A stretch of 13,433 nt of DNA, from positions 1 to 13,433 of the forward strand of contig JBDRLL010000030.1 in NCBI GenBank assembly GCA_043813075.1, given 5' to 3'. This DNA comes from Candidatus Altiarchaeota archaeon (lineage in GTDB: Archaea > Altiarchaeota > Altiarchaeia > IMC4 > SCGC-AAA252-I15). Position 1 is the first letter of the stretch. Each line of letters starts with the position of its first letter. This document shows, piece by piece, positions 1,797 to 13,433 of the stretch. Position numbers and translations under genes: made by a program. Under the pieces are notes generated by a model. The model did no database searches. It worked only from the letters and a program-made list of their open reading frames with translations, and was not told where the DNA came from.

Positions 1797-1970
1797 ATGT
1801 CTAGTAAAAAGTCCGTTAAGAAGTGCAGTTCATGTGGCACGGAAGTCTTGAAAAACTACAGTGAATTCAAGTGCCCTAAATGCGGGGAGAAGGAGATCAT
1901 CAGATGCGACCCCTGCCGGAAACTTGGGATAGCATACAAGTGCGATAAATGCGGTTTGGAAGGACCTTAG
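1797..1970 (+). CDS. DUF1610 / HVO_2753-like Zn-ribbon protein, 57 aa (not in ORF track)
   Basis: Manual translation: MSSKKSVKKCSSCGTEVLKNYSEFKCPKCGEKEIIRCDPCRKLGIAYKCDKCGLEGP*. Four CxxC pairs with the family pattern F-x-CP-x-CG...I-x-RC-x-x-CRK...Y-x-C-x-x-CG-x-EGP. Confidence 0.92.
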   Translation: MSSKKSVKKCSSCGTEVLKNYSEFKCPKCGEKEIIRCDPCRKLGIAYKCDKCGLEGP

Positions 1971-1978
1971 TCGTGCAG

Positions 1979-2557
1979 ATGAAACTGATGGTATTAGACC
2001 CTGAAAAGCCGAGCGATACCAGCATATCTGAGGTAGTTGATGTTCTTTCCATGGAGGGTGTCATAGTATACCCAACAGACACTGTTTATGGGTTAGGATG
2101 TGTTTTAGAGAAGAATCCTGTAGCGAGAGTGTATGAGATGAAAGGCCGTCCTGAAGGCATGCCATTATCCATAGCCTTCAGCGACATGAAGATGGTTAGG
2201 CACTACACGGTGTTGGGGGAGGGAGAGGAACAATTCATTGATGAACACTACAGAGACCCGCACACATTCATCGTGCATAAGAACAGTAGAATACCCGACT
2301 TCGTGACCGCTGGTGGGAATACTGTTGGAGTGAGGATACCGGACAATGAAGTGTGCAGGAGGATAATCAGACGGCTGGGGGAACCGATAACCACCACCAG
2401 CGCAAACATTTCAGGCAGGATGCCGCCAGCAAGCATGGGGGATTTGAGCAGGGAAATAGCTGACGCGGTGGACCTGGTTGTCGACTCCGGCGCATGTGGT
2501 AGCGGCACCCCATCAAGGATAATCGACCTCACAGAAAGAGGGAGAGTAGTGAGATAG
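1979..2557 (+). CDS. tsaC: L-threonylcarbamoyladenylate synthase (short TsaC/YrdC type, no SUA5 C-domain)
   Basis: Motifs YPTDTVYGLG, K-G-R-P, VGVRIPD, TTTSANISG and PSRIIDLT. Start moved from 1949 to ATG 1979, just after the DUF1610 stop. Confidence 0.93.
   Translation: MKLMVLDPEKPSDTSISEVVDVLSMEGVIVYPTDTVYGLGCVLEKNPVARVYEMKGRPEGMPLSIAFSDMKMVRHYTVLGEGEEQFIDEHYRDPHTFIVHKNSRIPDFVTAGGNTVGVRIPDNEVCRRIIRRLGEPITTTSANISGRMPPASMGDLSREIADAVDLVVDSGACGSGTPSRIIDLTERGRVVR
2195..2208 (+). repeat. Dispersed 14-bp motif, copy 1 (GTTAGGCACTACAC), inside tsaC
   Basis: Read directly; 13/14 identical to copy 2. Confidence 0.65.
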
Positions 2558-2588
2558 ATTTAACGCCACATACAGATATTATAGCAGG

Positions 2589-3110
2589 ATGAAGTGGAGT
2601 GCATGCGCCATAGGAACCATCATTTTTCTCCTCACAACAACAGTAAACGCCGATGACCTGCTAAACATCTCGGTTAACATAAACGGGGATGACGCGTCAA
2701 CAAAGATACCAAAAGCGTATACTGGGGAAAGTGCTAGCGTGAGAATAGTCCTCGAAACCCCTGAAGAAGGGGTGAGGATAAACGACATTTCATTCGCATC
2801 ATACCCCGGGGCGGTGGGCATAGTACTGAACAATGCTGTAAGGAAGAGCATTGAATTCCCATACACGACCGGGCCAGACACCATAAAAAACGATGTGTAC
2901 CTGCCATGGTACCTGCCAGAGGGATTATATGAGATAACCATAAACACCCACTACACACACGACTATTCCAGGGGCAGGAACACATACCGCATGCGGATCA
3001 TGGTCATGTCCGGCGGATGGACTTCAAGGATACTCGGATGGATAGCCTGGTTTCTCCCAGACCTAGTGACAAAAAAGATTATCGAGGTACTACTCCTTAT
3101 TTTTGGTTGA
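2589..3110 (+). CDS. Hypothetical exported protein with signal peptide and hydrophobic C-terminus
   Basis: N-terminus MKWSACAIGTIIFLLTTTVNA-D looks like a signal peptide. The core appears beta-rich (LPEGLYEITIN) and the C-terminus is hydrophobic. Overlaps cutA convergently by 21 bp. Confidence 0.7.
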   Translation: MKWSACAIGTIIFLLTTTVNADDLLNISVNINGDDASTKIPKAYTGESASVRIVLETPEEGVRINDISFASYPGAVGIVLNNAVRKSIEFPYTTGPDTIKNDVYLPWYLPEGLYEITINTHYTHDYSRGRNTYRMRIMVMSGGWTSRILGWIAWFLPDLVTKKIIEVLLLIFG

Positions 3111-3413
3111 GTATGATATCCAGTCGAGATAGCTCGGATGGCCGTGGGAGATTTCAACAGAGATTATCTCAGGGCATTCATAGGAGTGCTCCTCCAGTAT
3201 CCTAGAGAAAGCAGCGTCAATGCGTTGGCGTGTCGTCTTACACAACAGCAAGTATTCCTCTGAATGCTCTAACCTACCATCCCACACATATGTCGAATAC
3301 ACTGGGAAATAGTTCACACACGCCACAAAACCACCTTTAACCAGAATGTCAGAAATCCTCACTGCCTCGTCTCGCCCAGACACCGTAGTGTGGATAAGAT
3401 AGTAATCTCCCAT
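3090..3413 (-). CDS. cutA: Divalent-cation tolerance protein CutA
   Basis: ACVN...S-x-Y-x-W-x-G, E-x-LLLCKT, HSYECPEI and YLDWI motifs. Confidence 0.95.
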   Translation of the reverse strand: MGDYYLIHTTVSGRDEAVRISDILVKGGFVACVNYFPVYSTYVWDGRLEHSEEYLLLCKTTRQRIDAAFSRILEEHSYECPEIISVEISHGHPSYLDWISYSTKNKE

Positions 3414-3414
3414 G

Positions 3415-4257
3415 CTAACCAGTGAAGTCCATGCTGAAATCCAACGCCACCGCAGAGTGTGTGAGACGGCCTATTGAAATCCAGTCCACATCAAGACGAC
3501 CGTAATTCCGTATATTACGCAGTCTTATGCCGCCAGAGACCTCTATGAGAACCTTCCTCCTAAGCCCCCTCACCTCCAAGTCGGAGAGTATTTTACGTAT
3601 CTCCCTAGGACGCATGTTGTCCAGCATTATAACATCGGCACCGGACTCAGCAGCCTTCAACGCATCCGCACGATTAGACACCTCAACCTCCACCTTAGCC
3701 TTCAACCTGGCGTTAGAGGCAGCAGACAATGCCCTTTCAACATCATTATCAAACAGTATCAGGTGGTTGTCTTTGATCAGCACCATGTCGTAGAGGCCCA
3801 TCCTATGGGTGAGCCCTCCACCGACAACAACCGCCTTCTTCTCCAAACAGCGTATGAGGGGGGTTGTCTTCCGGGTCGCAGTCACCCGCGCCCTGGATTT
3901 CACAGAATTTAGGGCGTCAACGTATTTCCTCGTAAGTGTTGTGATCCCACTCATCCGGGAGAGTATGTTCAACGCAGTCCGTTCTATGAGGAGTATGTCA
4001 TGAGCATTCCCGTATAAACGGAAGACCACCATATCCTTTGAGACACGGTCGCCGTCAGACACCATTGGATTCGATTTTACATTGTATTGTTTGAAGAGCG
4101 CCTGGAGTTCATCAATACCTGAGACGTAGCCAGAATCCTTAGAACGTATTACTGCCCGAACCTTCGGGTTCGGGGTGAAAGAGGAGGTTAAGTCCCCAAG
4201 ACCCACATCCTCGCCGATCATGTCTTTCAGAAGCGTCCCTATGCTTCTGTCATTCAT
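3415..4257 (-). CDS. nadC: Nicotinate-nucleotide diphosphorylase (quinolinate phosphoribosyltransferase)
   Basis: ED-x-G-x-GDLTS, ERTALN, TRKTTP, HRMGLYD-x-x-LIKDNH, EVEV, IMLDNM and EVSGGI motifs. Confidence 0.96.
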   Translation of the reverse strand: MNDRSIGTLLKDMIGEDVGLGDLTSSFTPNPKVRAVIRSKDSGYVSGIDELQALFKQYNVKSNPMVSDGDRVSKDMVVFRLYGNAHDILLIERTALNILSRMSGITTLTRKYVDALNSVKSRARVTATRKTTPLIRCLEKKAVVVGGGLTHRMGLYDMVLIKDNHLILFDNDVERALSAASNARLKAKVEVEVSNRADALKAAESGADVIMLDNMRPREIRKILSDLEVRGLRRKVLIEVSGGIRLRNIRNYGRLDVDWISIGRLTHSAVALDFSMDFTG

Positions 4258-4532
4258 TCTGCTATTTCCTTGCGCCCCCTCGACGGGGAGGGAATCTTGT
4301 GCACGAGGATTATGTCACCAACTTCCGCAACCTCCTCATAGGGGATGCTCTCATCCCGGAGTATCCTCCTGACCTCCTCACCAGAGGGCGAGGACCCCTT
4401 GAAAGACTGCAGACTCAAACGCATAATCTCCCCCTTCTCAAGGTTTAATATGACATCCTGCACCCTCCCGACAAACTGTCCCTTGGTAGTGTAGATGTCC
4501 ATCCCATACAACTCAGATAATCGCTTACTCAT
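4254..4532 (-). CDS. PRC-barrel domain protein (resembles archaeal cell-division CdpB family)
   Basis: LSELYGMDIYTTKGQFVGRVQDVILN...IPYEEVAEVGDIILV is a PRC-barrel pattern. Start at ATG 4532 (GGTG upstream) or 4544; overlaps the nadC start (ATGA). Confidence 0.88.
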   Translation of the reverse strand: MSKRLSELYGMDIYTTKGQFVGRVQDVILNLEKGEIMRLSLQSFKGSSPSGEEVRRILRDESIPYEEVAEVGDIILVHKIPSPSRGRKEIAE

Positions 4533-4566
4533 GTGAAACACCATTTAATGTTAAGTATTTCATTCA

Positions 4567-4580
4567 GCTTATTTATAAGC
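4567..4580 (-). promoter_or_regulatory. Palindrome overlapping the TATA box of the PRC-barrel-nadC-cutA unit
   Basis: GCTTAT-TT-ATAAGC is a perfect 6-bp inverted repeat; the minus strand reads TTATAAATA, about 25 nt upstream of ATG 4544. Confidence 0.45.
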
Positions 4581-4693
4581 AAATTAGTTAAAAAAACAGG
4601 TTTAAACAATAGGGGAGGGGGGTGAGTTCCAGTATTAACCGGGGTTTGGGAGCGTATTTAATCTTTAAGAGAGTATAATCTATAGGGAGGAAG

Positions 4694-5674
4694 ATGCCGG
4701 AAACAAGTATAGTAGCATTTGCGCTGGGATTTCTGGTGGTGGTGGTGACCGCCTTCAAGTCCATAGTCGTGGTAAGACCCTACGAGAAGGGGGTTGTAGA
4801 ACGCATGGGGAAATACAATAGGACCCTTGGTTCTGGCCTAAACATAATACTGCCGTTCATGGAGTCGGTCTATAAGGTGGATATGAGGGAGGCGTTGATA
4901 GATGTTCCATCCCAGGAAGTGATAACCAAGGACAACGTAAACATAAGCGTTGACGCAGTAATCTACTTCAAAGTCACAGACCCCTTCAGAGTCATGTACA
5001 ACGTAGCTATGTTCGAGGACGCTGTCAGCAAGCTCGCTCAGACAAACTTGAGGAACATAATCGGAGAGCTCGGGCTTGACGAAACGCTCGCCTCAAGAGA
5101 CAAGATAAACATAGAATTGAGGAAGATACTTGACGAGATAACAGACAAGTGGGGCGTCCGCGTAACCCGCGTGGAGATACAGGATGTGGAACCACCAAAG
5201 GACATTGTTGACGCCATGAGCAGGCAGATGAAGGCGGAGCGTACGAAGAGGGCTTCCATACTCGAGGCAGAGGGAACAAAACTGTCGGAGATACTGAGGG
5301 CTGAAGGCAAGAAGCAGTCAGAGATACTCGATGCAGAGGGGAAAGCCATCGCAATAGAGCGTGTTGCAGAGGCTGAGAAGAAGAAGAAGTCCCTGCTAGC
5401 CCAGGGAGAAGCAGATGCTATAGGCAGGGTATTCACTGCCATACACGACGGGAAGGCGACCAAAGACATACTCACCATAAAGTATCTGGAGGCCTTGGAG
5501 AAGATGGCTGACGGGCAGGCCACAAAGATATTCATGCCCTTCGAGACCAGCGGCCTTTTAAGCGGAGCCGCGGTAATGGGTGAGATGTTCAGGGAGGGGG
5601 GGATGCCCAAGCAGATAGAGGCCATTAAGAAGCCCAAGAAAGACGTGCCTGCGGGAGCAGAAGACAAAAGATAG
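4694..5674 (+). CDS. SPFH/band 7 (stomatin/QmcA-like) membrane protein
   Basis: N-terminal TM helix; motifs VVERMGKY, QEVITKDN, AQTNLRNIIG, WGVRVTRVEI and QMKAER; AEG coiled-coil repeats; GGGAGG ribosome-binding site. Confidence 0.95.
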   Translation: MPETSIVAFALGFLVVVVTAFKSIVVVRPYEKGVVERMGKYNRTLGSGLNIILPFMESVYKVDMREALIDVPSQEVITKDNVNISVDAVIYFKVTDPFRVMYNVAMFEDAVSKLAQTNLRNIIGELGLDETLASRDKINIELRKILDEITDKWGVRVTRVEIQDVEPPKDIVDAMSRQMKAERTKRASILEAEGTKLSEILRAEGKKQSEILDAEGKAIAIERVAEAEKKKKSLLAQGEADAIGRVFTAIHDGKATKDILTIKYLEALEKMADGQATKIFMPFETSGLLSGAAVMGEMFREGGMPKQIEAIKKPKKDVPAGAEDKR

Positions 5675-5687
5675 TTAGGCACTACAT
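5674..5687 (+). repeat. Dispersed 14-bp motif, copy 2 (GTTAGGCACTACAT), between the SPFH stop and the KaiC-like start
   Basis: Read directly; begins at the last base of the SPFH TAG. Confidence 0.8.
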
Positions 5688-5697
5688 TGGTGGTATT

Positions 5698-6414
5698 TTG
5701 GTTAAGGAAAAACTCAACACAGGAATCAGGGAGCTGGATGAGCTGCTTGGGGGAGGGATCCCAAGAGGGCATGTTGTTCTCCTATCAGGCTCATGTGGGA
5801 CAGGCAAGACAATACTCTCACACCAATTCCTGTTTGAAGGCGCTAAAAAGGGGGAATCAGGACTATACATATCGCTTACTGAACCCTCAGGCATGATAGA
5901 GGAGAACCTGGAGGAATTCAGCTTCTATGATAAGAAATACGTTGACGAAGGCCTTGTGAACATAATAGACGTTGAAGAGGAATGCATCCTAGGCAATCTG
6001 AGCGAGAGAACCCCAGAATACCTGGTAAAGACCATAAGCGACGTGATAAACAACAAAAACAGGAGGAGGATAGTCTTAGACTCTGTGACAGCCCTGGCAG
6101 ACGACATAGAGGATGAAGCCATGCTGAGAGACTTCCTGCTATCCTTAAGGAGGAAGCTGATGAAGGAGAGGTCCACGCTAATACTGATTTCAGAGATTAA
6201 GCCAATGACATTTGAATACAGTAAGTATGGTGTTGAAGAGTTCGTTTCAGACGGGGTGATAATGCTGTCTGAGCTGGAGAGGAAGGGAGACCTGATACGG
6301 ACCCTCCAGGTCATAAAAATGAGGGGGATAGATCACAGCCGGAACAAGCAGGTGATGAAGATAATGAAGGAGGGTATTGTCCTAAACCCCATATTCAAGT
6401 CAGACTTAGACTGA
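5698..6414 (+). CDS. Single-domain KaiC/RAD55-like RecA-superfamily ATPase
   Basis: TGIRELDELLGGGIP, Walker A GSCGTGKT, Walker B RIVLDS, YGVEEFVSDGVIML and IKMRG. TTG start with GGTGGT upstream. Confidence 0.92.
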   Translation: MVKEKLNTGIRELDELLGGGIPRGHVVLLSGSCGTGKTILSHQFLFEGAKKGESGLYISLTEPSGMIEENLEEFSFYDKKYVDEGLVNIIDVEEECILGNLSERTPEYLVKTISDVINNKNRRRIVLDSVTALADDIEDEAMLRDFLLSLRRKLMKERSTLILISEIKPMTFEYSKYGVEEFVSDGVIMLSELERKGDLIRTLQVIKMRGIDHSRNKQVMKIMKEGIVLNPIFKSDLD

Positions 6415-6455
6415 CCTTAGACATAGCATGAACAAAAATAATAGAAAGTATATAA

Positions 6456-6488
6456 GAAAAAATTATAATATATAAGCTAATCTTATAT
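6456..6488 (-). terminator. Putative terminator of the ferredoxin gene
   Basis: Inverted repeat ATATAAG/CTTATAT (6470-6488) directly after the stop, followed on the minus strand by a T6 run. Confidence 0.35.
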
Positions 6489-6489
6489 C

Positions 6490-6693
6490 TTATTTGGATT
6501 GTCCTAGCTTTATGGCCTCTACAGGACATGAAGCAACGCACGCACCGCATTCAATACATGCTTCTGGATGCTTTACCACAGACTTTTTCCCTTCTTCCTT
6601 GTCGACAAGCTCGAAGACTGTCGGGGAAGCAGGGCAGACTGACACGCAGGCCCCACATCCAGTGCATTTCTTTTCATCAACAATTGGTGGCAT
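6490..6693 (-). CDS. 2[4Fe-4S] ferredoxin
   Basis: Two CxxCxxCxxxCP motifs (CTGCGACVSVCP, CIECGACVASCP); strong AGGAGGT ribosome-binding site at 6701-6707. Confidence 0.95.
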   Translation of the reverse strand: MPPIVDEKKCTGCGACVSVCPASPTVFELVDKEEGKKSVVKHPEACIECGACVASCPVEAIKLGQSK

Positions 6694-6759
6694 TCTAGTA
6701 ACCTCCTTAGTTAAAAAGTAGAAGTAAATAATAGAATACTCCTATAAAAAAGAGAAGAA

Positions 6760-7908
6760 ATGGATGTGTACTTGGATCACGCGGCAACCACGCCAGTAGA
6801 TGGTTCTGTTGTAAAAGCAATGCTGCCGTATATGACGGAGAGATACGGGAATGCTTCAAGCCTCCATAAAAAGGGGAGGGAAGCTAGGGATGCGTTAGAG
6901 GCGGCGAGGAAGACTATTGCAGGCAGGATAAACGCCTCCCCTGAGGAGGTAATATTCACGTCAGGCGGGAGCGAGTCAGACAACCTGGCGCTAAAGGGGG
7001 TGGCTTACAAGAGAAAGGAGGGGGGAGGGCATTTGATAACCAGCAGGATAGAACATCCAGCAGTTTTAGAAACATGCCGGCGTCTGGAGGTAAAAGGGTT
7101 TAATGTAACCTACCTTGACGTCGACGGGGAGGGTTTTATCAGCCTGGCCGATCTGGAAGACAGCATAACAGAAAAGACGGTTATGGTGTCAGTAATGCAT
7201 GCAAACAATGAGGTGGGGACCATAAACGACATAAAGGCTATAGGTGGGTTGTGCCATGAGCGTGGGGTGCTTTTCCACACCGACGCAGTGCAAAGCTTCA
7301 CTAAGACAGAGATAGATGTGAAGAAGCAGAATATAGACCTCGCTTCCTTCTCATCCCATAAGATACATGGACCCAAAGGAGTGGGAGCCCTATACGTCAG
7401 GGAGGATCTAAAGAACAGGATTGAACGCCAGATTGATGGAGGGGGCCATGAATACCGGCTTAGGGCGGGAACAGAGAATGTTGCAGGAGCAGTGGGTTTC
7501 TCGCATGCAACCAACCTGATAACGAAAGAGGATGTGAGGGGAATGAGCGGACTCAGAGACAAGATAATACGAGAGTTAACAAAGCTCCCGGAATCGCATT
7601 TAAACGGGCCTGAGGGGGATAAACGGTTGTGCAACAACGCGAACATAAGCTTCTACAACATTGAGGGGGAGTCCCTGCTATTGATGCTTGACTCTCTGGG
7701 AGTGCAGGTATCAACAGGTTCGGCGTGCTCAAGCGCAAGCCTTGAGCCAAGCCATGTGTTGACTGCGATGGGCAGACGACCAGAGCAGTCTCATGGTTCC
7801 ATACGCATAAGCTTGGGTAGGGAAAACACTGAGGAAGAAGTAGATTACGCCATAGACGCGATAGGGGGGGTGGTTCTTAAACTAAGGGCGCTAAGCCCAC
7901 TAGTCTAA
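6760..7908 (+). CDS. iscS: Group I cysteine desulfurase (IscS/NifS)
   Basis: YLDHAATTP, FTSGGSESDN, HTDAVQ, PLP-lysine motif SSHKIHGPKG and catalytic STGSACSS. Confidence 0.95.
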   Translation: MDVYLDHAATTPVDGSVVKAMLPYMTERYGNASSLHKKGREARDALEAARKTIAGRINASPEEVIFTSGGSESDNLALKGVAYKRKEGGGHLITSRIEHPAVLETCRRLEVKGFNVTYLDVDGEGFISLADLEDSITEKTVMVSVMHANNEVGTINDIKAIGGLCHERGVLFHTDAVQSFTKTEIDVKKQNIDLASFSSHKIHGPKGVGALYVREDLKNRIERQIDGGGHEYRLRAGTENVAGAVGFSHATNLITKEDVRGMSGLRDKIIRELTKLPESHLNGPEGDKRLCNNANISFYNIEGESLLLMLDSLGVQVSTGSACSSASLEPSHVLTAMGRRPEQSHGSIRISLGRENTEEEVDYAIDAIGGVVLKLRALSPLV

Positions 7909-7914
7909 TCCACA

Positions 7915-8724
7915 TCACCAACCCCTTTTCTCACTCTTTTCCTTAGCAACACTCAGCTGTATGTCAGAGGGATGTGTTGAATCCCATAGCTGGGATATGC
8001 TTTCAGCAAGGCCGAACAATTCAGGGTCATTGTTTATGGAATATTTCTTACCAAGACTCTTGTGTGCTCTTATCTTCCCCATGAGTTCGATTACGTTGAC
8101 TCGCGTGTCAACGCATCCGTCACGCTCTAGGATCACGGCCTGGACGGGGAGCCCCGCATCCGCCATTAGACTGGAACCTTCGTACACTTCAAGGACGCAC
8201 CCCACACCTAAAACCGCCTTAGGCTTGTACTTCTTGACCATCCTTTTCACGAGCATGGATCCGGGTGCTATGAAAAAACGGTATCCTAGCTGTTCAGAGT
8301 ACTCCTTTATCTTGAATATGCCGCAACGACCGCATGAAATGCATTTTATACCCTCAGAACCAAGGGGGGCGGGGCATTTGGGGTTTCTCATGCATTGGGG
8401 CAGGAATATCACCCGCTCAGGATAGTTGGTGGACGCGTAAGCCTTAGCGTATAGTATGTTCCTCAACTCCACGACCATCGTGTCTATGAATATTCCATCG
8501 ATACCGAACAGCCATGACATCTGCTTTACAGGAGCCTCCAGGAATCCGAGTATGAACAAGGTTATGTTAGGGAGCATAATCCGGTTGTTCCTACGGTAGA
8601 CTAATGCGAGAAAAACCCCCAACAGGGATAAGGACACCACACTCACGAAGAGCGTTCCTGCCAGGATAATGGTCGCTAACCCTATCTTATGTAGGGTGGT
8701 AAGCTCAAAAACAGGCAAATCCAT
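7915..8724 (-). CDS. DUF116-family Cys-rich membrane-anchored protein
   Basis: N-terminal TM segments, then FLPQCMR-x-x-x-CPA, C-x-x-CG-x-C, IAPGS, VLGVGC and GCVDT, the DUF116 pattern. Confidence 0.85.
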   Translation of the reverse strand: MDLPVFELTTLHKIGLATIILAGTLFVSVVSLSLLGVFLALVYRRNNRIMLPNITLFILGFLEAPVKQMSWLFGIDGIFIDTMVVELRNILYAKAYASTNYPERVIFLPQCMRNPKCPAPLGSEGIKCISCGRCGIFKIKEYSEQLGYRFFIAPGSMLVKRMVKKYKPKAVLGVGCVLEVYEGSSLMADAGLPVQAVILERDGCVDTRVNVIELMGKIRAHKSLGKKYSINNDPELFGLAESISQLWDSTHPSDIQLSVAKEKSEKRGW

Positions 8725-8758
8725 GGTATATACTACATGGCAGCAGGCTATAAAAGCG

Positions 8759-9340
8759 TCAGTAGTCTATCCCACGCCTAACCCTAATACCCCTGTTAAA
8801 CGGGTGTTTTACGTCCTTTAGCTCAGTAACATAGTCAGCGGCTTCGATAATCCTCTTGGGGGCGTTACGCCCAGTCAACACGAGTTCCGTGTGGCTTTTC
8901 TTGGATTTAATCAGCTTAAGCACACGGTCAACTGACGTTAGCTTGCGGTGCAGCGCATTATTCACTTCATCTATTATCACCAGGTCGTATTTCCCTGACT
9001 TAAGTATCTTCTCAGCGTGGTTCAAAGCCTCCTCAACGTATTCCCTCTCTTCATTTCGCGATATGAAGCAGTCCCTACAGTTCCCACAATCTATGTCCCC
9101 CTTCTTCATCTCATCAGAGTAAGGGCACTTCTTCCCGTATTGTTTTATGGTCATCCTGGGGAGGATTTCAATGGAGGATATCACCTCACCCATATGACTA
9201 CCACCCTTCAGTAACTGTATCATGTACACGGAGAATCCATGCCCCATAGACCTTAAAGCAAGCCCTAATGAGATGCTCGTCTTCCCCTTACCCGCTCCAG
9301 TGTAAACATGGATAAGACCCTTCCTCTTATTAGCTGGCAT
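8759..9340 (-). CDS. cobA: ATP:cob(I)alamin adenosyltransferase, CobA/BtuR/CobO type, with a 4-Cys insertion
   Basis: GLIHVYTGAGKGKT short P-loop, IQLLKG, YDLVIIDE, ELVLTGR-x-AP, ADYVTE, KHPF and GIDY. Start at ATG 9340; the 9439 start would overlap nrdJ. Confidence 0.93.
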   Translation of the reverse strand: MPANKRKGLIHVYTGAGKGKTSISLGLALRSMGHGFSVYMIQLLKGGSHMGEVISSIEILPRMTIKQYGKKCPYSDEMKKGDIDCGNCRDCFISRNEEREYVEEALNHAEKILKSGKYDLVIIDEVNNALHRKLTSVDRVLKLIKSKKSHTELVLTGRNAPKRIIEAADYVTELKDVKHPFNRGIRVRRGIDY

Positions 9341-9344
9341 ATTA

Positions 9345-11492
9345 TCACGCGATGCTACACGCAGAGTACCCACATGAATGGCATTTACTGCATCCTTCCT
9401 CAAACACGAGTTTACTGCCGCACTCAGGGCAAGAATCATCCTTGCCTGCCTTCCTCTCAGACTTTGGCTTGTTAACAGCCTCTATATTCAATACCTGCCC
9501 GCTCCTACTCCCATCCCTGTATATGGTCACCCCCTTACACCCCAGTTTGTAGGCTAGGAGGTATACTTTCTCAACATCATCTGTTGTAGCGTAGTTCGGG
9601 AAGTTGACTGTCTTTGAGACTGCGTTATCGGTGTGCTTCTGGAATGCCGCCTGCATTCGCACATGCCATTCAGGCGTTACTTCATGGGCGGTGATGAACA
9701 CACCCTTAACGTCCTCAGGTATCTCGTCTATACCTTGTATGGTGCCCCTCCGAGCTATCTTCCGCATCAATTCCTCGCTGTAGAACCCTTTTTCACGCGC
9801 CATCCTCTCGAATAGGGGGTTCACCTCAACCATCTCCGTCCCATCAAGGATATTTCGTATGAAAGATACTGCAAACAACGGTTCTATCCCCCCAGAGCAG
9901 TTGGCTATGATGCTTATAGTCCCCGTGGGGGCTATGGTGGTTGTGGTCGCATTCCTCAGCTTCGCATACCCTTGCCCTGGCCATATGCTCTTCTTGAAGT
10001 TTGGGAACACCCCCCTCTTTTCCGCCAGCTCCGCAGACGCCTTCTTAGACTCCTCGTTAATGAAGGACATTACCTTTTCAGCCACACTAATGGCATCTTC
10101 ACTGTTGTACGGCACCCCTAATTGTATCAGCATGTCCGCAAACCCCATTATACCAAGACCTATCTTCCGGTTGCTCCTAACCATCTTAGCTATCTCATCA
10201 AGGGGGAAGTTACTCATGTCTATCACATTATCAAGGAAGTGAACCGCAACATGCACGATCCGCTTTAGCCTGCGCCAATTAACCTCACCCTCATCAACCA
10301 TCTTAGACAGGTTTATGGACCCTAGGTTGCACGCCTCGTAGGGCAGTAGCGGCTGTTCGCCGCACGGGTTCGTGGATTCTATCTCCCCTATCGCAGGAGT
10401 GGGGTTGTCCCTGTTGAGCCTGTCGAGGAATATTATCCCAGGTTCCCCGTTCTTCCAGGCCATGGTGATGATCAAGTCGAATACATGCTTCGAGTTTATG
10501 CGGTTCATCACGCTCTTGTCATGTGGGTTAATGAGGTCATAGTCCTCTCCCTTCTCCACAGCATCCATGAAACTTTCAGTGACCCCCACAGATATGTTGA
10601 AGTTGTTCAAAACATTCTCCTGCTCTTTAGCGGTTATGAAATCTATTATGTCCGGATGGTCTACGCGGAGTATGGCCATGTTAGCCCCCCTCCTCGTGCC
10701 CCCCTGCTTGATGACCTCCGTCGCAGCGTTGAATACGTTCATGAATGATAATGGACCTGATGCTACGCCACTGGTTGATCTCACATGATTGCCTTTGGGC
10801 CTCAGCCTGCTGAATGAGAATCCAGTGCCGCCGCCACTCTTGTGTATTAGTGCCGTGTTCTTTATGGCCTCGAATATGCTTTCCATGCTGTCCTCAACGG
10901 GGAGTACAAAGCATGCTGAGAGCTGTTGGAGTTCCCTGCCCGCGTTCATGAGGGTTGGTGAGTTTGGCATGAAATACTTGTTTGACATGATATCATAGAA
11001 ATCCCTCTCTGTTTTTTTGACATCCGCTTTTTTGTTGTATAACGCGTCCGCCTCAGCTATGTTCCTAGCCACCCTCTGGAAGAGTTGCTTTGGGGTTTCA
11101 GTGATTGCCCCGTCTGGTGACTTCATCAAGTACCTCTTTTCAAGGACTTTAACCGCGTTTAGGGATAGTTTTATGTCGTCGTCGACTCCCATAAGGGATT
11201 TTGTCTCACGAAGTTTCTTGCGTTCCTGCCTGTATATTATGTATGCTTTCGCCACGTCTGGCTTGCTGTCTTTTATCAGAACGTCTTCAACTATGTCCTG
11301 AACGTCCTCCACGCTAGGGGTTTTGTTCTTGAATCTGGAATTCAGTTTCCTTACGACATTTCCTGCCAGCCGGTCAGCTTCCTTACCGTCCTTCTCGTTG
11401 ACTGCCGTTATGGCCTTGTGTATTGCGTCAACAATCTTCTGCTTGTTGAATTTGACTGTTCTCCCGTCTCTCTTCCGTATCTTAGAAACCAT
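9345..11492 (-). CDS. nrdJ: Class II (adenosylcobalamin-dependent) ribonucleotide reductase with N-terminal ATP-cone and C-terminal Cys cluster
   Basis: ATP-cone (IRKRDGR...VEDVQDIVE...AKAYIIYR), [16 protein letters not shown], thiyl motif [25 protein letters not shown] and [11 protein letters not shown]; no intein evident. Start ATG 11492 with GGGGTGG upstream. Confidence 0.95.
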
Positions 11493-11556
11493 TATCCACC
11501 CCAACCCAATAGGTGCTTTACAGATTAGATTGGGGGAATATATATCTTCAGCATCC

Positions 11557-11796
11557 TCACCCCTGGTCGACTGACTCAACCCGCTCAACACCTGGGACTT
11601 CCTTCTTCAGGGTCTGCTCTATCCCGTGTTGGAGGGTCATCTGCGACATCGGGCATCCGTGGCATGCTCCCTTTAGCCTTACCTTTACCACACCCCCTTC
11701 AACGTCCACCAGCTCCACATCTCCCCCATCCATCTGGAGTAGGGGGCGTATCTTCTCCAGGCTCTTGGATACCTGTCCTTTAAGATCGTCTGTCAT
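11557..11796 (-). CDS. NifU C-terminal (Nfu)-domain Fe-S carrier protein
   Basis: IRP[12 protein letters not shown] and L[19 protein letters not shown]; single Nfu domain with CxxC. Confidence 0.93.
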
Positions 11797-11829
11797 ATTC
11801 CATAACTTATCCGTTATCCTTTATAACTG

Positions 11830-12714
11830 TTATAGTATCCCCTCTAATATCAGTGGGAGTGCTATTGTCGCATCGGAATATACTGTTACAGACCCCCCAT
11901 TCTCCCTTATCTTACCCCAGGATTTAGCCTCCCTCGGCATCGCTCCGGACAGGGAGCCATCGTATTCCAATGCTGTTGTCACATATACCGCGTAGTCGAG
12001 ACCCCCTCGAAGTAGGTTCACACCCAGCGTATGGTGTTTTGATATGCCTCCCCCCAGGATTATGCCCCCTGTTTTTTCAGCATCATACGCTAGGTCTATC
12101 ATCGCTTGCATGTCTCCAAGGGGGTCCAGCATGAAGTCCCTATGCTTCTGGCGGAAGAAGAACATCTGTAGCCCCAGGGCAGAGTCAGTTATCCCTGGGG
12201 TAAACACGGGTATGTTGTTCTTCAGGCAGGTTCCTATGAACGTCTTCTTCTTTATGTTTCTGGCAAAGTGTTCAGTAAGCTCTCTTGGTGTCACCGTGCT
12301 CTTTTCCCCGTAAATCTTCTTCAAAAGGGGTTGAGTCTTCCTCTCCAATAGCTCGTATCTGTCGTTTGGCACCAGTATGTTCCCTATCCTGTTTACCCCC
12401 TTCTTGTGCAGTCTTACGTCGTCTTCATTGAACCCCCCAATCCTATATGGTTTGAAGGCCCTTATTATGTCGTGGTCTATGCTGCCTCCAGTGGTTATGA
12501 CAGCATCCACCATCCTTTTCTCAGCCATCTCTATGAACACTCCTCTCAGCCCGCTGGCCATCATGTTGGCTGTGAACGAGAGGAATATGGTGCATCCATC
12601 CTGCTTCATCCTCTCTATCATCTCCCTGGCCTCACCTATCCTCGTGGCCTGGAAGCCAGTGTTCCTGAAATCCATGCCCCCTCCTGTGGGGGTGATATCC
12701 TCTACATACTCCAT
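11830..12714 (-). CDS. dys: Deoxyhypusine synthase
   Basis: GFQAT, SGLRG, NRIGNILVP, ILGGGISKHH and DGSLSGA-x-x-x-EAKSWGK with the catalytic Lys retained. Confidence 0.94.
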   Translation of the reverse strand: MEYVEDITPTGGGMDFRNTGFQATRIGEAREMIERMKQDGCTIFLSFTANMMASGLRGVFIEMAEKRMVDAVITTGGSIDHDIIRAFKPYRIGGFNEDDVRLHKKGVNRIGNILVPNDRYELLERKTQPLLKKIYGEKSTVTPRELTEHFARNIKKKTFIGTCLKNNIPVFTPGITDSALGLQMFFFRQKHRDFMLDPLGDMQAMIDLAYDAEKTGGIILGGGISKHHTLGVNLLRGGLDYAVYVTTALEYDGSLSGAMPREAKSWGKIRENGGSVTVYSDATIALPLILEGIL

Positions 12715-12728
12715 ACGCAGTGCCTAAC
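12715..12728 (-). repeat. Dispersed 14-bp motif, copy 3 (GTTAGGCACTGCGT), directly before the dys ATG
   Basis: Plus strand reads ACGCAGTGCCTAAC. Confidence 0.8.
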
Positions 12729-12745
12729 TATTTTTTTGTTTATAT

Positions 12746-13030
12746 CTACCTGGTGTCCAGGCACTTTATTATGTGCCATCCGAATTCCGTCCGCACCGGC
12801 CTGGAGATCTCCCCCTTATTTAGCTCGAAAGCAGCCTTCTCGAATTCCTTGACCATCCTCCCCCTACCAAACCAGCCCAAGTCGCCTCCCCTCCTTCCTG
12901 AAGGGCATTCCGAGGATTCTTCAGCAATCTTGGCGAAGCTCTTCTTACCTAGCTTCAAGTCGTCGTATATGCCCTGTGCCTTGTCCATGGTCTTGACGAG
13001 GATATGTGATGCGTGCACTTCTTTAACCAT
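12746..13030 (-). CDS. ppiC: Single-domain parvulin-type peptidyl-prolyl cis-trans isomerase
   Basis: ASHILVK, S-x-CPS-x-x-x-GGDLGWF, MVKEFEKAAF and PVRTEFGWHII; 94 aa. Confidence 0.95.
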   Translation of the reverse strand: MVKEVHASHILVKTMDKAQGIYDDLKLGKKSFAKIAEESSECPSGRRGGDLGWFGRGRMVKEFEKAAFELNKGEISRPVRTEFGWHIIKCLDTR

Positions 13031-13072
13031 ACAAAACCATATGTATCGGTTTCTTAAAAACAGAAAAACAAC

Positions 13073-13086
13073 ACGTAGTGCCTAAC
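13073..13086 (-). repeat. Dispersed 14-bp motif, copy 4 (GTTAGGCACTACGT), 3 nt after the nadX stop
   Basis: Plus strand reads ACGTAGTGCCTAAC. Confidence 0.8.
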
Positions 13087-13089
13087 TTC

Positions 13090-13433
13090 TCATGTTCCTA
13101 TCTCTAACCGCCCGCATATCCTCCTGAGGGTCTGTACTGCTGAAAGGCATGCCATGTACGATGTTCCCGGGTTCTCCGGGGAGGGTACGTTGTCTGCCCT
13201 GGATTCGAATGCCCCGAATGCCCCGCTGGCCTTTATCTCGTGAGTGTTGCTGCTCGCAGTCGGGTCGCACACTATGACGACCCTAGTCTTGTCAGGGCCT
13301 ACCCCCGCAAGGCTTAGTATTGCAGACACGTTGACGTTCTTTGGGAATAGCTTCACCGCTTCCCTGGCCGGGCCGTCGTAGAGTGTAGTGGCCTTTGTTA
13401 TCTTATCCACGTCTATGCCCCTATCTTCAAGGT
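13090..13433 (-). CDS. nadX: L-aspartate dehydrogenase, C-terminal part (truncated by window edge)
   Basis: Frame is open to the window end (..LEDRGIDVDKIT..). G-x-AREAVKLFPKNVNVSA, NTHEI and PSPENPGTS match the DUF108 domain. Confidence 0.9.
   Translation of the reverse strand, partial: LEDRGIDVDKITKATTLYDGPAREAVKLFPKNVNVSAILSLAGVGPDKTRVVIVCDPTASSNTHEIKASGAFGAFESRADNVPSPENPGTSYMACLSAVQTLRRICGRLEIGT

Follow-up and report, generated by a model that had tools for sequence, protein, structure and literature searches.

Four copies of a short word in the window

The window, which is the whole stretch of 13,433 nt analyzed here, belongs to contig JBDRLL010000030.1 of a Candidatus Altiarchaeota archaeon (assembly GCA_043813075.1; genome G000). 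A short DNA word is repeated in it within or directly next to genes. The relevant features are as follows.

1949..2557, plus strand: tsaC (Sua5/YciO/YrdC; Pfam PF01300, E 5.6e-46), host of the intragenic copy
2195..2207, plus strand: motif copy GTTAGGCACTACA in the tsaC (Sua5/YrdC) coding sequence, frame V-R-H-Y-T
4694..5674, plus strand: Band7/SPFH gene (Pfam PF01145; synteny), with a motif copy at its 3′ end in several genera
5674..5686, plus strand: motif copy GTTAGGCACTACA at the Band7 / KaiC-like junction
11830..12714, minus strand: deoxyhypusine synthase (DHS; Pfam PF01916, E 6.4e-104), with a motif copy adjoining the start codon
12716..12728, minus strand: variant copy GTTAGGCACTGCG at the parvulin / DHS junction
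13074..13086, minus strand: variant copy GTTAGGCACTACG at the aspartate dehydrogenase / parvulin junction
13090..13431, minus strand: aspartate dehydrogenase, 3′ part (Pfam PF01958)

The 10-mer GTTAGGCACT is present in four exact copies, at 2195(+), 5674(+), 12719-12728(-) and 13077-13086(-), as the sequence-only reading had reported. None of 200 dinucleotide shuffles of the window reached this number (shuffle mean 0.56), and a scan of the window at up to one mismatch revealed no fifth copy. Three of the four copies match the 12-mer GTTAGGCACTAC perfectly, also as reported; the remaining copy reads GTTAGGCACTGCG. Gene positions and Pfam matches agree with the earlier placement of three copies in tight junctions and of one inside tsaC, where it encodes V-R-H-Y. 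The copy at 5674..5686 shares its first base with the end of the Band7 stop codon (TAG, 5672-5674); 11 nt separate the end of the copy from the TTG start codon of the KaiC-like gene at 5698. The copy at 12716..12728 lies 17 nt past the parvulin stop codon and ends 1 nt short of the DHS ATG (12714); the A/T-rich sequence ATATAAAC is located 17 nt upstream. The copy at 13074..13086 begins 3 nt past the stop codon of aspartate dehydrogenase (TGA, 13092-13090), and the parvulin ATG (13030) follows 43 nt further on. The 5′ part of the aspartate dehydrogenase gene is found on contig C34 (ORF 9707-10149), with an additional V-R-H-Y copy of the motif at 9929.

The consensus of the word is RRA-GTTAGGCACTACA, with the 11-base core TTAGGCACTAC. 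The purine-rich 5′ flanks noticed in the window are a general property: among 132 copies, 73% have A at position -1, and about 80% have a purine at positions -2 and -3. The word is not self-complementary, as can be read directly from its sequence, and no inverted half-site was seen in the flanks of the 132 copies.

Genome-wide excess and distribution

In the 1.80 Mb of G000, 15 copies of GTTAGGCACT were counted, with 1.5-2.1 expected under Markov models of orders 2-6. For the 13-mer GTTAGGCACTACA the count is 12, with 0.02-0.04 expected under the same models, and the 11-mer core occurs 16 times. Given 15 copies per genome, the probability of finding at least four in the 13.4 kb window is 6e-6. 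The word is also sharply defined: the 13-mer has 12 exact, 5 one-mismatch and 29 two-mismatch occurrences in G000, compared with 0, 0-1 and 18-31, respectively, for seven control words.

The exact 13-mer was found in 38 of 61 Altiarchaeota genomes, whereas the reversed control word occurs 0-1 times per genome. At least five copies of the 11-mer core are present in 35 of the 61, and the highest core count is 73 in the 1.4 Mb of genome G052 (about one per 19 kb). Within family f1 the word is present in five genera and absent or rare in six. A T-first variant occurs in G003 and G010, which also encode the small protein described below. Three genomes outside the Altiarchaeota set, with a GC content ranging from 38% to 60%, contain 20, 27 (genome G065) and 7 copies of the 13-mer. 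The word is spelt identically throughout an order and also occurs in other archaeal lineages. The earlier suggestion of a genome-wide, non-palindromic signal is thereby supported, since the word is over-represented in the whole genome and is kept between genomes. A literature search for such a word returned no paper, in line with the earlier remark that no archaeal equivalent is established. To our knowledge, no genome-wide, exact, protein-constraining DNA word has been described for archaea.

Copies inside and between genes

Within genes, copies occur in each of the three stop-free frames, a property that had been suggested as a check: L-G-T-T, V-R-H-Y and, on the antisense strand, V-V-P-N. 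L-G-T-T is spelt TTA GGC ACT ACA in 4 of 13 cases, although TTA accounts for only 7% of Leu codons, and the antisense word spells 3 of the 7 occurrences of V-V-P-N. An exact copy also occupies the tsaC site in G012, whose orthologous protein is 49% identical. TsaC orthologues lacking the motif carry VCEY, AKTY or VEEY at this site with no indel; the G023 tsaC has an antisense copy elsewhere in the gene, and at locus L028 three copies lie just 3′ of tsaC. Judged by these sequences, intragenic copies arise through rare codons and amino-acid-changing substitutions and not through insertions. Between G000 and the congeneric G001, only the sites in aspartate dehydrogenase and in the C35 protein match, a comparison that covers 8 intragenic copies among the 10 fetched of the 17 copies of G001.

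The copies had been described as always lying in sense orientation. This is true only of the four copies in the window. Three of the nine copies inside G000 genes are antisense (HypD, C35 and C37). Over all loci examined, 29 intragenic copies are sense and 9 antisense, which does not differ from a 2:1 ratio (p = 0.23). That ratio is expected, since two sense frames of the word but only one antisense frame lack stop codons.

Between genes, the copies are arrayed in a common orientation at 3′ ends and in tight junctions, and often begin 0-20 nt after a stop codon. Within an array the copies are at least 21 bp apart and uniform in orientation. Inverted pairs had been proposed as something to look for; none of 48 intergenic regions holds both orientations. 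Divergent intergenic regions, where promoters are expected, are avoided (at most 3 of the 48), and a crude count of co-directional regions gave 16 sense and 5 antisense (p = 0.03). In G065 and G033, composite repeats of about 100-250 bp contain 2-4 copies of the word together with hairpin modules, often at contig ends. One composite repeat lies in frame inside a Dph2-like ORF.

The copies are concentrated in a conserved gene block that includes the window. The genes flanking them are indeed functionally unrelated, as had been stated, but the same ones bear the motif in many genomes, namely those for aspartate dehydrogenase, Band7, TsaC, DHS and Lon. Downstream of the Band7 orthologue, one to three copies are present in G012, G001 and G023, and in G023 the small candidate reader gene lies between Band7 and the copies. 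The GCG variant seen in the window in GTTAGGCACTGCG is also found at the 5′ end of the DHS orthologue of G002 (L022), and in G012 a copy is located 44 nt upstream of DHS. The aspartate dehydrogenase orthologue is followed by one to four same-strand copies in at least eight other loci.

A small basic protein as candidate reader

The candidate reader of the word is a basic protein of 53-65 aa, encoded in G000 at C20:3983-4141. Its signature is M-x-F-V-R-x-K-x-I-K-G-x-x-Y-Y-Y-L-V-x-S-x-R-x-x-x-x-V-x-Q-x-x-L-x-Y-L-G. In 14 of 28 evaluable genomes the 130 nt preceding the small gene contain the reverse complement of the core, and in one more genome the core is there in the other orientation. These copies mostly abut TTTTATA-type boxes, roughly 10-85 nt before the start codon, and sit directly upstream of the TATA box, at the BRE position. 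Genome G062 contains just two exact copies in 1.6 Mb, and both are upstream of the small gene. Among 200 distinct copies, only 12 adjoin a TATA-like box. In G000 and 12 other genomes no motif lies upstream of the small gene; in G000, G001, G002, G004, G012, G018 and G003 it closely follows another gene.

A strong match to the small protein was obtained in 30 of 35 motif-rich and in 4 of 26 motif-poor genomes (Fisher p 4e-8, a value confounded by kinship). The motif-rich genomes without a strong match are G016, G020, G006, G046 and G048, which are 70-89% complete, and G065 with its 27 copies has only a weak one. The 40-residue domain of the small protein has 553 near-length relatives. It is N-terminal in DDE and rve transposases and in Fic proteins. 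In a CarH-like protein of 280 aa it is likewise N-terminal, with B12-binding_2 and B12-binding domains after it (hhalign probability 97.4%). In CarH-type regulators this N-terminal place is occupied by the DNA-binding domain. The family has no name in Pfam, PHROG or NCBIfam, and its profile matched no solved structure. At the level of sequence, the small protein belongs to no described DNA-binding family.

Proposed function of the word

The observations speak for a site that a DNA-binding protein occupies, such as a regulator operator or the site of a nucleoid protein. Both had been among the options listed by the sequence-only reading; its RNA-element option has lost its basis, and its uptake-sequence option is weakened. 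That the word is specifically the DNA-level binding site of the 53-65 aa candidate reader has, in our estimate, about an even chance of being correct. We propose that the word is recognized as DNA by a sequence-specific, probably monomeric protein. The most likely reader is the small basic protein, whose binding to the word we infer. At its own promoter the bound protein would compete with TFB/TBP, and therefore would regulate its own expression. Between 10 and about 70 further sites per genome would be available to it in junctions, 3′ flanks and gene interiors. Selection would hold the sites at aspartate dehydrogenase, Band7, TsaC, DHS and Lon, strongly enough to alter amino acids. Our guess is that the dispersed sites are anchoring or architectural, or roadblock-type marks of the conserved chromosomal block, and that some, for example at DHS, could be operators.

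An autoregulated archaeal transcription factor offers a parallel, since in 14 genomes the promoter of the candidate reader has the word overlapping its BRE position, and the window copy next to DHS is placed between an A/T-rich box and the ATG. The word differs from such a case in that most of its sites are outside promoters, that sites are written into coding sequence and that the candidate reader stands outside the described DNA-binding families. Sites of a regulator should lie in promoters. The copies, however, avoid divergent regions and are located at gene 3′ ends and in gene interiors, which the regulator model alone does not explain.

The word might instead be a set of polar chromosome-level sites (a Ter-like fork barrier, or KOPS- or matS-like sites) marking the replication terminus or another landmark. 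This is compatible with a protein reader, and we consider it unlikely. The parS/ParB, matS/MatP and Tus-Ter systems each comprise tens of near-exact sites of 13-23 bp per genome, which lie in and between genes, cluster within a single chromosomal region and require a reader protein specific to the lineage. Ter sites lack symmetry and form opposed groups that flank the terminus; parS and matS are palindromes to which a dimer binds. The word is like all three in having tens of near-exact regional sites inside and between genes, and like Ter in its asymmetry, but it differs from parS and matS in not being palindromic. Its hot-spot copies are opposed in four genomes: in the window, G012, G002 and G001, plus copies lie on the left and minus copies on the right, 8-10 kb apart. 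An exact asymmetric site, arrays of uniform orientation and a copy number of 10-30 would also fit, as would the position of the word on the G-rich strand at 8 of 10 G000 loci outside the window. The cumulative GC-skew maximum is no more than about 10 kb from the hot spot on G023:C1, G002:C1 and G012:C3, and on G023:C1 eight positive skew bins are followed by five negative ones. However, these three skew-associated hot spots are one syntenic region and therefore not independent, and GC skew largely tracks gene strand in the genomes examined. There is no single polarity outside the hot spot (the copies at G012:C3 166926 and 479653 are both minus, on the left side). In the closed, motif-free G026 the Band7 orthologue is 52 kb from cdc6, without synteny, and origin and terminus were not located in any motif-bearing genome. 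Origin recognition boxes for Orc1/Cdc6 were considered separately and rejected: the G000 contig with cdc6 has neither a copy of the word nor a repeated 11-mer, and in G012 cdc6 and the hot spot are on different contigs. A more specific proposal, which we regard as rather unlikely, is that a small protein with a new DNA-binding fold and its exact 13-bp site form an archaeal chromosome-marking system. Its sites would be selected even in essential genes and would have opposed polarity at a conserved GC-skew-switch landmark. Such a system, an analogue of Tus-Ter or matS/MatP or a fork/transcription roadblock, would be common to Altiarchaeota and to genomes labelled Micrarchaeota and Iainarchaeota.

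Spread by molecular drive, in which motif-bearing DNA is preferentially taken up or recombined and accumulates where tolerated, is improbable in our view. Like the Neisseria DUS and the Pasteurellaceae USS, the word is short, exact, non-palindromic and lineage-specific, occurs in genes and between them, constrains codons and residues, and favours gene 3′ ends among its intergenic copies. Its use of every stop-free frame on both strands, its patchiness within family f1 combined with its sharing with other phyla, and the turnover of intragenic copies between G000 and G001 would suit such drive. This reading is weakened because density is low, inverted pairs are missing, ComEC was not detected and the regional hot spot is conserved. 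DUS and USS have a density of roughly one per kb; the word is one to two orders of magnitude less dense, with 12-16 copies per 1.8 Mb in G000 (about one per 120 kb) and at most the density of G052. Its arrays are direct, unlike the frequent inverted pairs of DUS and USS, which form terminator hairpins. ComEC (PF03772) is above cut-off in none of the 61 genomes, although archaeal uptake, whose machinery is poorly characterized, may not need it. Retention of the word at particular loci and its placement on the TATA box of one specific gene are unexpected under drive. We find it distinctly improbable that the word is the core of a MITE- or REP-like selfish repeat, with sites that are remnants of element ends and a small protein that is a domesticated transposase DNA-binding domain. 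A short conserved core, 3′ intergenic arrays, avoidance of divergent promoter regions and the composite repeats are shared with REP/BIME and MITE elements, and the small-protein domain is present in transposases, including an IS with 8 copies in G021. The archaeal core, however, contains neither a palindrome nor a hairpin, isolated copies in conserved genes were made by substitution, and the flanks of all 15 G000 copies have nothing in common beyond the word itself. The end of the G021 IS and its direct repeat are unlike the word. The Y1 (RAYT-type, IS200/IS605-like) transposase PF01797, above cut-off in 20 of the 61 genomes, does not track the motif, being absent from G000, G012, G002, G016 and G033 and present in the motif-free G026, G022, G027 and G019. 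A search of viral contigs for tandem word pairs gave no matches. An element acting in RNA, either a 3′-UTR or terminator signal or a binding site for a protein or sRNA in mRNA, is very unlikely. It had been suggested by the strict sense orientation, and the window copies, the co-directional counts and the positions shortly past stop codons agree with it. The orientation rule fails genome-wide, and antisense V-V-P-N copies are as enriched as sense L-G-T-T copies. At the 14 small-gene promoters the word is upstream of the TATA box and therefore outside the transcript of that gene. T-runs downstream are not clearly enriched (20 versus 13 of 132), close relatives express the same genes without the word, and Rfam 15 gave no match at gathering score, either for the window or for 10 array loci.

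If the small protein reads the word, a widespread, uncharacterized 40-residue domain would gain a function. The two would then provide a simple, testable protein-DNA pair in the uncultivated Altiarchaeota and a handle on chromosome organization or global regulation in the motif-bearing lineages. Arrays of the word break assemblies, and the word tags a conserved chromosomal block, for which it is a practical marker.

Distribution of the motif in the window and in the genome

The four exact copies of the 10-mer GTTAGGCACT described in the sequence-only reading were all recovered in the window, and no extra copy was found there at one mismatch. Their number is above chance, as had been estimated, since none of 200 dinucleotide-preserving shuffles of the window reaches four. 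The copies were placed by combining a reading of the sequence with the ORF list and Pfam:

2195, + strand: copy in the Sua5/YrdC (tsaC) ORF, where it reads V-R-H-Y
5674, + strand: copy sharing one base with the Band7 stop codon; the start of a KaiC-like gene follows 11 nt further
12719-12728, - strand: variant copy (...GCG), ending one base short of the deoxyhypusine synthase ATG
13077-13086, - strand: variant copy (...ACG), 3 nt past the aspartate dehydrogenase stop

The ORFs of a corrinoid adenosyltransferase (8759-9439) and a ribonucleotide reductase (9345-11591) in the window lie on the same strand and have 95 bases in common; one of the two starts has probably been called too far upstream.

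Contig C30 of the G000 assembly (1.80 Mb, 41 contigs) contains the window. The 10-mer, proposed earlier as a candidate genome-wide signal, occurs 15 times in G000, against 1.5-2.1 expected under Markov models of orders 2-6. The excess is far larger for the exact 13-mer GTTAGGCACTACA, with 12 copies against 0.02-0.04 expected under the same orders. The 13-mer, here called the word, is the commonest in G000 once low-complexity coding repeats, judged by eye, are set aside. Its mismatch spectrum is very sharp, with 12 exact, 5 one-mismatch and 29 two-mismatch occurrences; for seven control words the corresponding counts were 0, 0-1 and 18-31. The A-rich upstream sequence is all that the flanks of the G000 copies share. 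Given 15 copies per genome, the probability of four copies in a 13.4 kb window is P = 6e-6. G000 also holds 8-12 copies of another family of non-repetitive 13-mers, made up of GCGACAACTGCCC and words that overlap it.

Conservation across archaea

The word recurs in related genomes: of 41 relatives, 28 contain the exact 13-mer, as do 38 of the 61 genomes of the phylum set, with a maximum of 58 copies, and the reversed control word occurs 0-1 times per genome in the same 61. The 11-base core, TTAGGCACTAC, has at least 5 copies in 35 of the 61 genomes, which are referred to as motif-rich. In two genomes that seemed motif-free the first base is T, not G. The consensus derived from 132 copies is RRA-GTTAGGCACTACA. 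The word is a real, conserved, DNA-level signal. A sequencing-adapter or assembly artefact was rejected, because copies run in frame through conserved proteins.

Beyond the 61-genome set, a tandem-pair scan also matched MAGs with the labels Micrarchaeota, Iainarchaeum, Woesearchaeota and Methanosarcinales; copy numbers in three of these are 20, 27 and 7, at GC contents of 38-60%. Two bacterial matches were also obtained. In a Cytophagales MAG (L018), the 13-mer lies inside a small palindrome of a 52-bp tandem repeat. In a high-coverage Leptolyngbyaceae contig (L035), a pair of copies has the same AAA prefix, and the contig has no similarity to G000. Both matches are probably due to chance, though the second looks motif-like. 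Literature searches, at the level of titles and the opening lines of abstracts, yielded nothing relevant on the word, Altiarchaeota motifs, archaeal uptake sequences or DUF6788.

Copies inside genes

The copies were initially described as always sense-oriented. This is true of the window only, as the genes of G000 hold three antisense copies, read V-V-P-N, beside four L-G-T-T and two V-R-H-Y copies. These readings are exactly the three stop-free frames of the word. Over all loci, 29 copies within genes are sense and 9 antisense, with no departure from 2:1. TTA makes up 7% of leucine codons, yet the word spells 4 of 13 L-G-T-T tetrapeptides; it also spells 3 of 7 V-V-P-N. TsaC orthologues align without gaps and have VRHY where the word is present and VCEY, AKTY or VEEY where it is not. 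In these sequences the word is imposed on the proteins.

The tsaC locus is also informative about the position of the site. TsaC of another genome, G023, contains an antisense copy at a different position (VVPN, where others have IPD), and in another lineage three copies lie immediately 3' of the gene. The copies shift between lineages, and therefore the site is retained at the locus while its exact place moves. This favours selection acting on DNA at particular loci over insertion.

Intergenic copies and arrays

Inverted pairs, suggested by analogy with uptake sequences, were not found: none of the 48 copy-bearing intergenic regions holds copies in mixed orientations. With genes called crudely from ORFs, 21 of these regions are co-directional (16 sense, 5 antisense), 16 convergent and at most 3 divergent, and 8 are without one flank; thus, the copies favour regions at gene 3' ends and avoid promoter-only regions. 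An association with transcription terminators was rejected, as T5 runs lie downstream of 20 and upstream of 13 of 132 copies, without clear enrichment. A general promoter or transcription start element was rejected as well, since no TATA box at a fixed upstream distance was seen by eye and 12 of 200 distinct copies adjoin a TATA-like box.

Start-to-start spacings within arrays, read by eye, form a continuum from 21 to about 60 bp with no strict helical phase. Composite repeats, in which several copies are combined with covarying hairpins, are present in some genomes and frequently lie at contig ends. A Dph2-like ORF of the Iainarchaeum-labelled genome G065 (L058:1595-2722) includes an in-frame stretch, some 40-50 residues long, in which the word occurs three times and is read L-G-T-T each time; the stretch belongs to a composite repeat that is also present at loci L061 and L063. 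The intergenic arrays of G033 and its relatives (L001-L003, L030, L036, L011) contain repeated modules, one with a 5-bp stem and an 11-nt loop followed by ACCAAAA, another a TTCG-loop hairpin whose stem covaries among copies. Such modules point to a structured RNA or to a hairpin bound by protein. In G000, a gene that by eye is tRNA-like (C26:14770-14930), with a long internal insertion, a probable intron, adjoins two copies of the motif.

A candidate protein reading the motif

Clustering of ORFs near copies across lineages revealed a basic protein of 53-65 aa, whose gene adjoins copies in three lineages, among them an Altiarchaeales genome and a genome labelled Micrarchaeota. In its promoter the reverse-complement word immediately adjoins a TTTTATA-type box and precedes the start by roughly 10-85 nt. 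The core is found within 130 nt upstream of the gene in 14 of 28 evaluable genomes, in the other orientation in 1 and not at all in 13; one further locus was too short to evaluate. One genome of 1.6 Mb has only two exact copies, both at this promoter. Among motif-rich genomes, 30 of 35 have a strong match to the protein, against 4 of 26 among motif-poor ones, a contrast inflated by kinship. The G000 gene (C20:3983-4141) comes after proC and a hypothetical gene, with no copy upstream of it.

The protein has no match in Pfam, PDB, PHROG or NCBIfam. Its 553 relatives of near length are unnamed or hypothetical, bar a few evidently stray labels, and a language model gave a lead to DUF6788. Its 40-residue domain also occurs at the N-terminus of Fic proteins and of DDE and rve transposases, and in a Nitrosopumilus protein it precedes two B12-binding domains. 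In CarH-type regulators, this position is that of the DNA-binding domain. The fold of the small protein may resemble an AP2- or integrase-arm-like one. The genome G021 has at least 8 identical copies of an IS-like element (L158, L178-L182), every one of them located at the end of a contig. The product of the element, 340 aa long when counted from the first Met (open frame 343 aa), has an N-terminus related to the small protein, and the DNA upstream of the ORF holds two occurrences of a 12-base direct repeat. An origin of the word from IS ends was rejected, because the end of this element is unlike the word.

The best-supported reading, for which we consider the chances about even, is that the word is the binding site of the small protein. 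The protein would bind the copy at its own BRE/TATA and so autoregulate, and further sites at gene junctions, in 3' flanks and inside genes would be maintained by selection. Candidate roles for the dispersed sites are operators, as at deoxyhypusine synthase, anchoring or architectural sites, and polar roadblocks.

Three other explanations would each account for part of the observations, and for each there is at least one contradicting result. Spread of the word by an uptake-sequence-type drive is at odds with the lack of ComEC, which was found above the cut-off in none of the 61 genomes. As for a purely selfish repeat, no tandem pairs were present in viral contigs, and Y1 transposase does not track the motif, so that the RAYT reading was rejected. 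As for an RNA element, the word precedes the TATA box at the small-gene promoters and must therefore act there as DNA; moreover, the window and 10 array loci gave no Rfam match. The same loci gave no tRNA match, and derivation from tRNA or rRNA was rejected.

A conserved hot spot

The window is part of a syntenic block that comprises the genes for Lon, an SSB-like OB-fold protein, ACT-HAD phosphatase, aspartate dehydrogenase, TraB, a PRC-barrel protein, NadC, CutA, TsaC, GatD, Band7, deoxyhypusine synthase and ribonucleotide reductase. In many genera, copies within the block follow aspartate dehydrogenase, Band7, Lon or TsaC. In G000 the aspartate dehydrogenase gene is split over two contig ends, with the N-terminal 147 aa on C34 (9707-10149) and the C-terminal 113 aa in the window (13090-13431); therefore, C30 and C34 are probably adjacent. 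C34 terminates in the 5' part of this gene and carries one further copy there, so about five of the 15 copies fall within about 14 kb.

In four genomes the + and the - copies lie on opposite sides of the block, and in three the cumulative GC skew reaches its maximum near it. A link between the hot spot and the replication terminus is put forward only as a hypothesis, because the skew follows gene strand, the three genomes represent one syntenic region and distal copies are without uniform polarity. A role as origin boxes was rejected, as cdc6 is located elsewhere and has no copy beside it.

Motif-free relatives have these genes too; their junctions are compact, and no other motif was found in place of the word. 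A variant motif downstream of Band7 was rejected for these relatives, the junction in G011 and G008 being compact with the SSB-like gene. At these loci (L077, L078, L082) the SSB-like OB-fold gene stands immediately after Band7; in the motif-bearing family f5 it stands after aspartate dehydrogenase or Lon, with motif arrays between.
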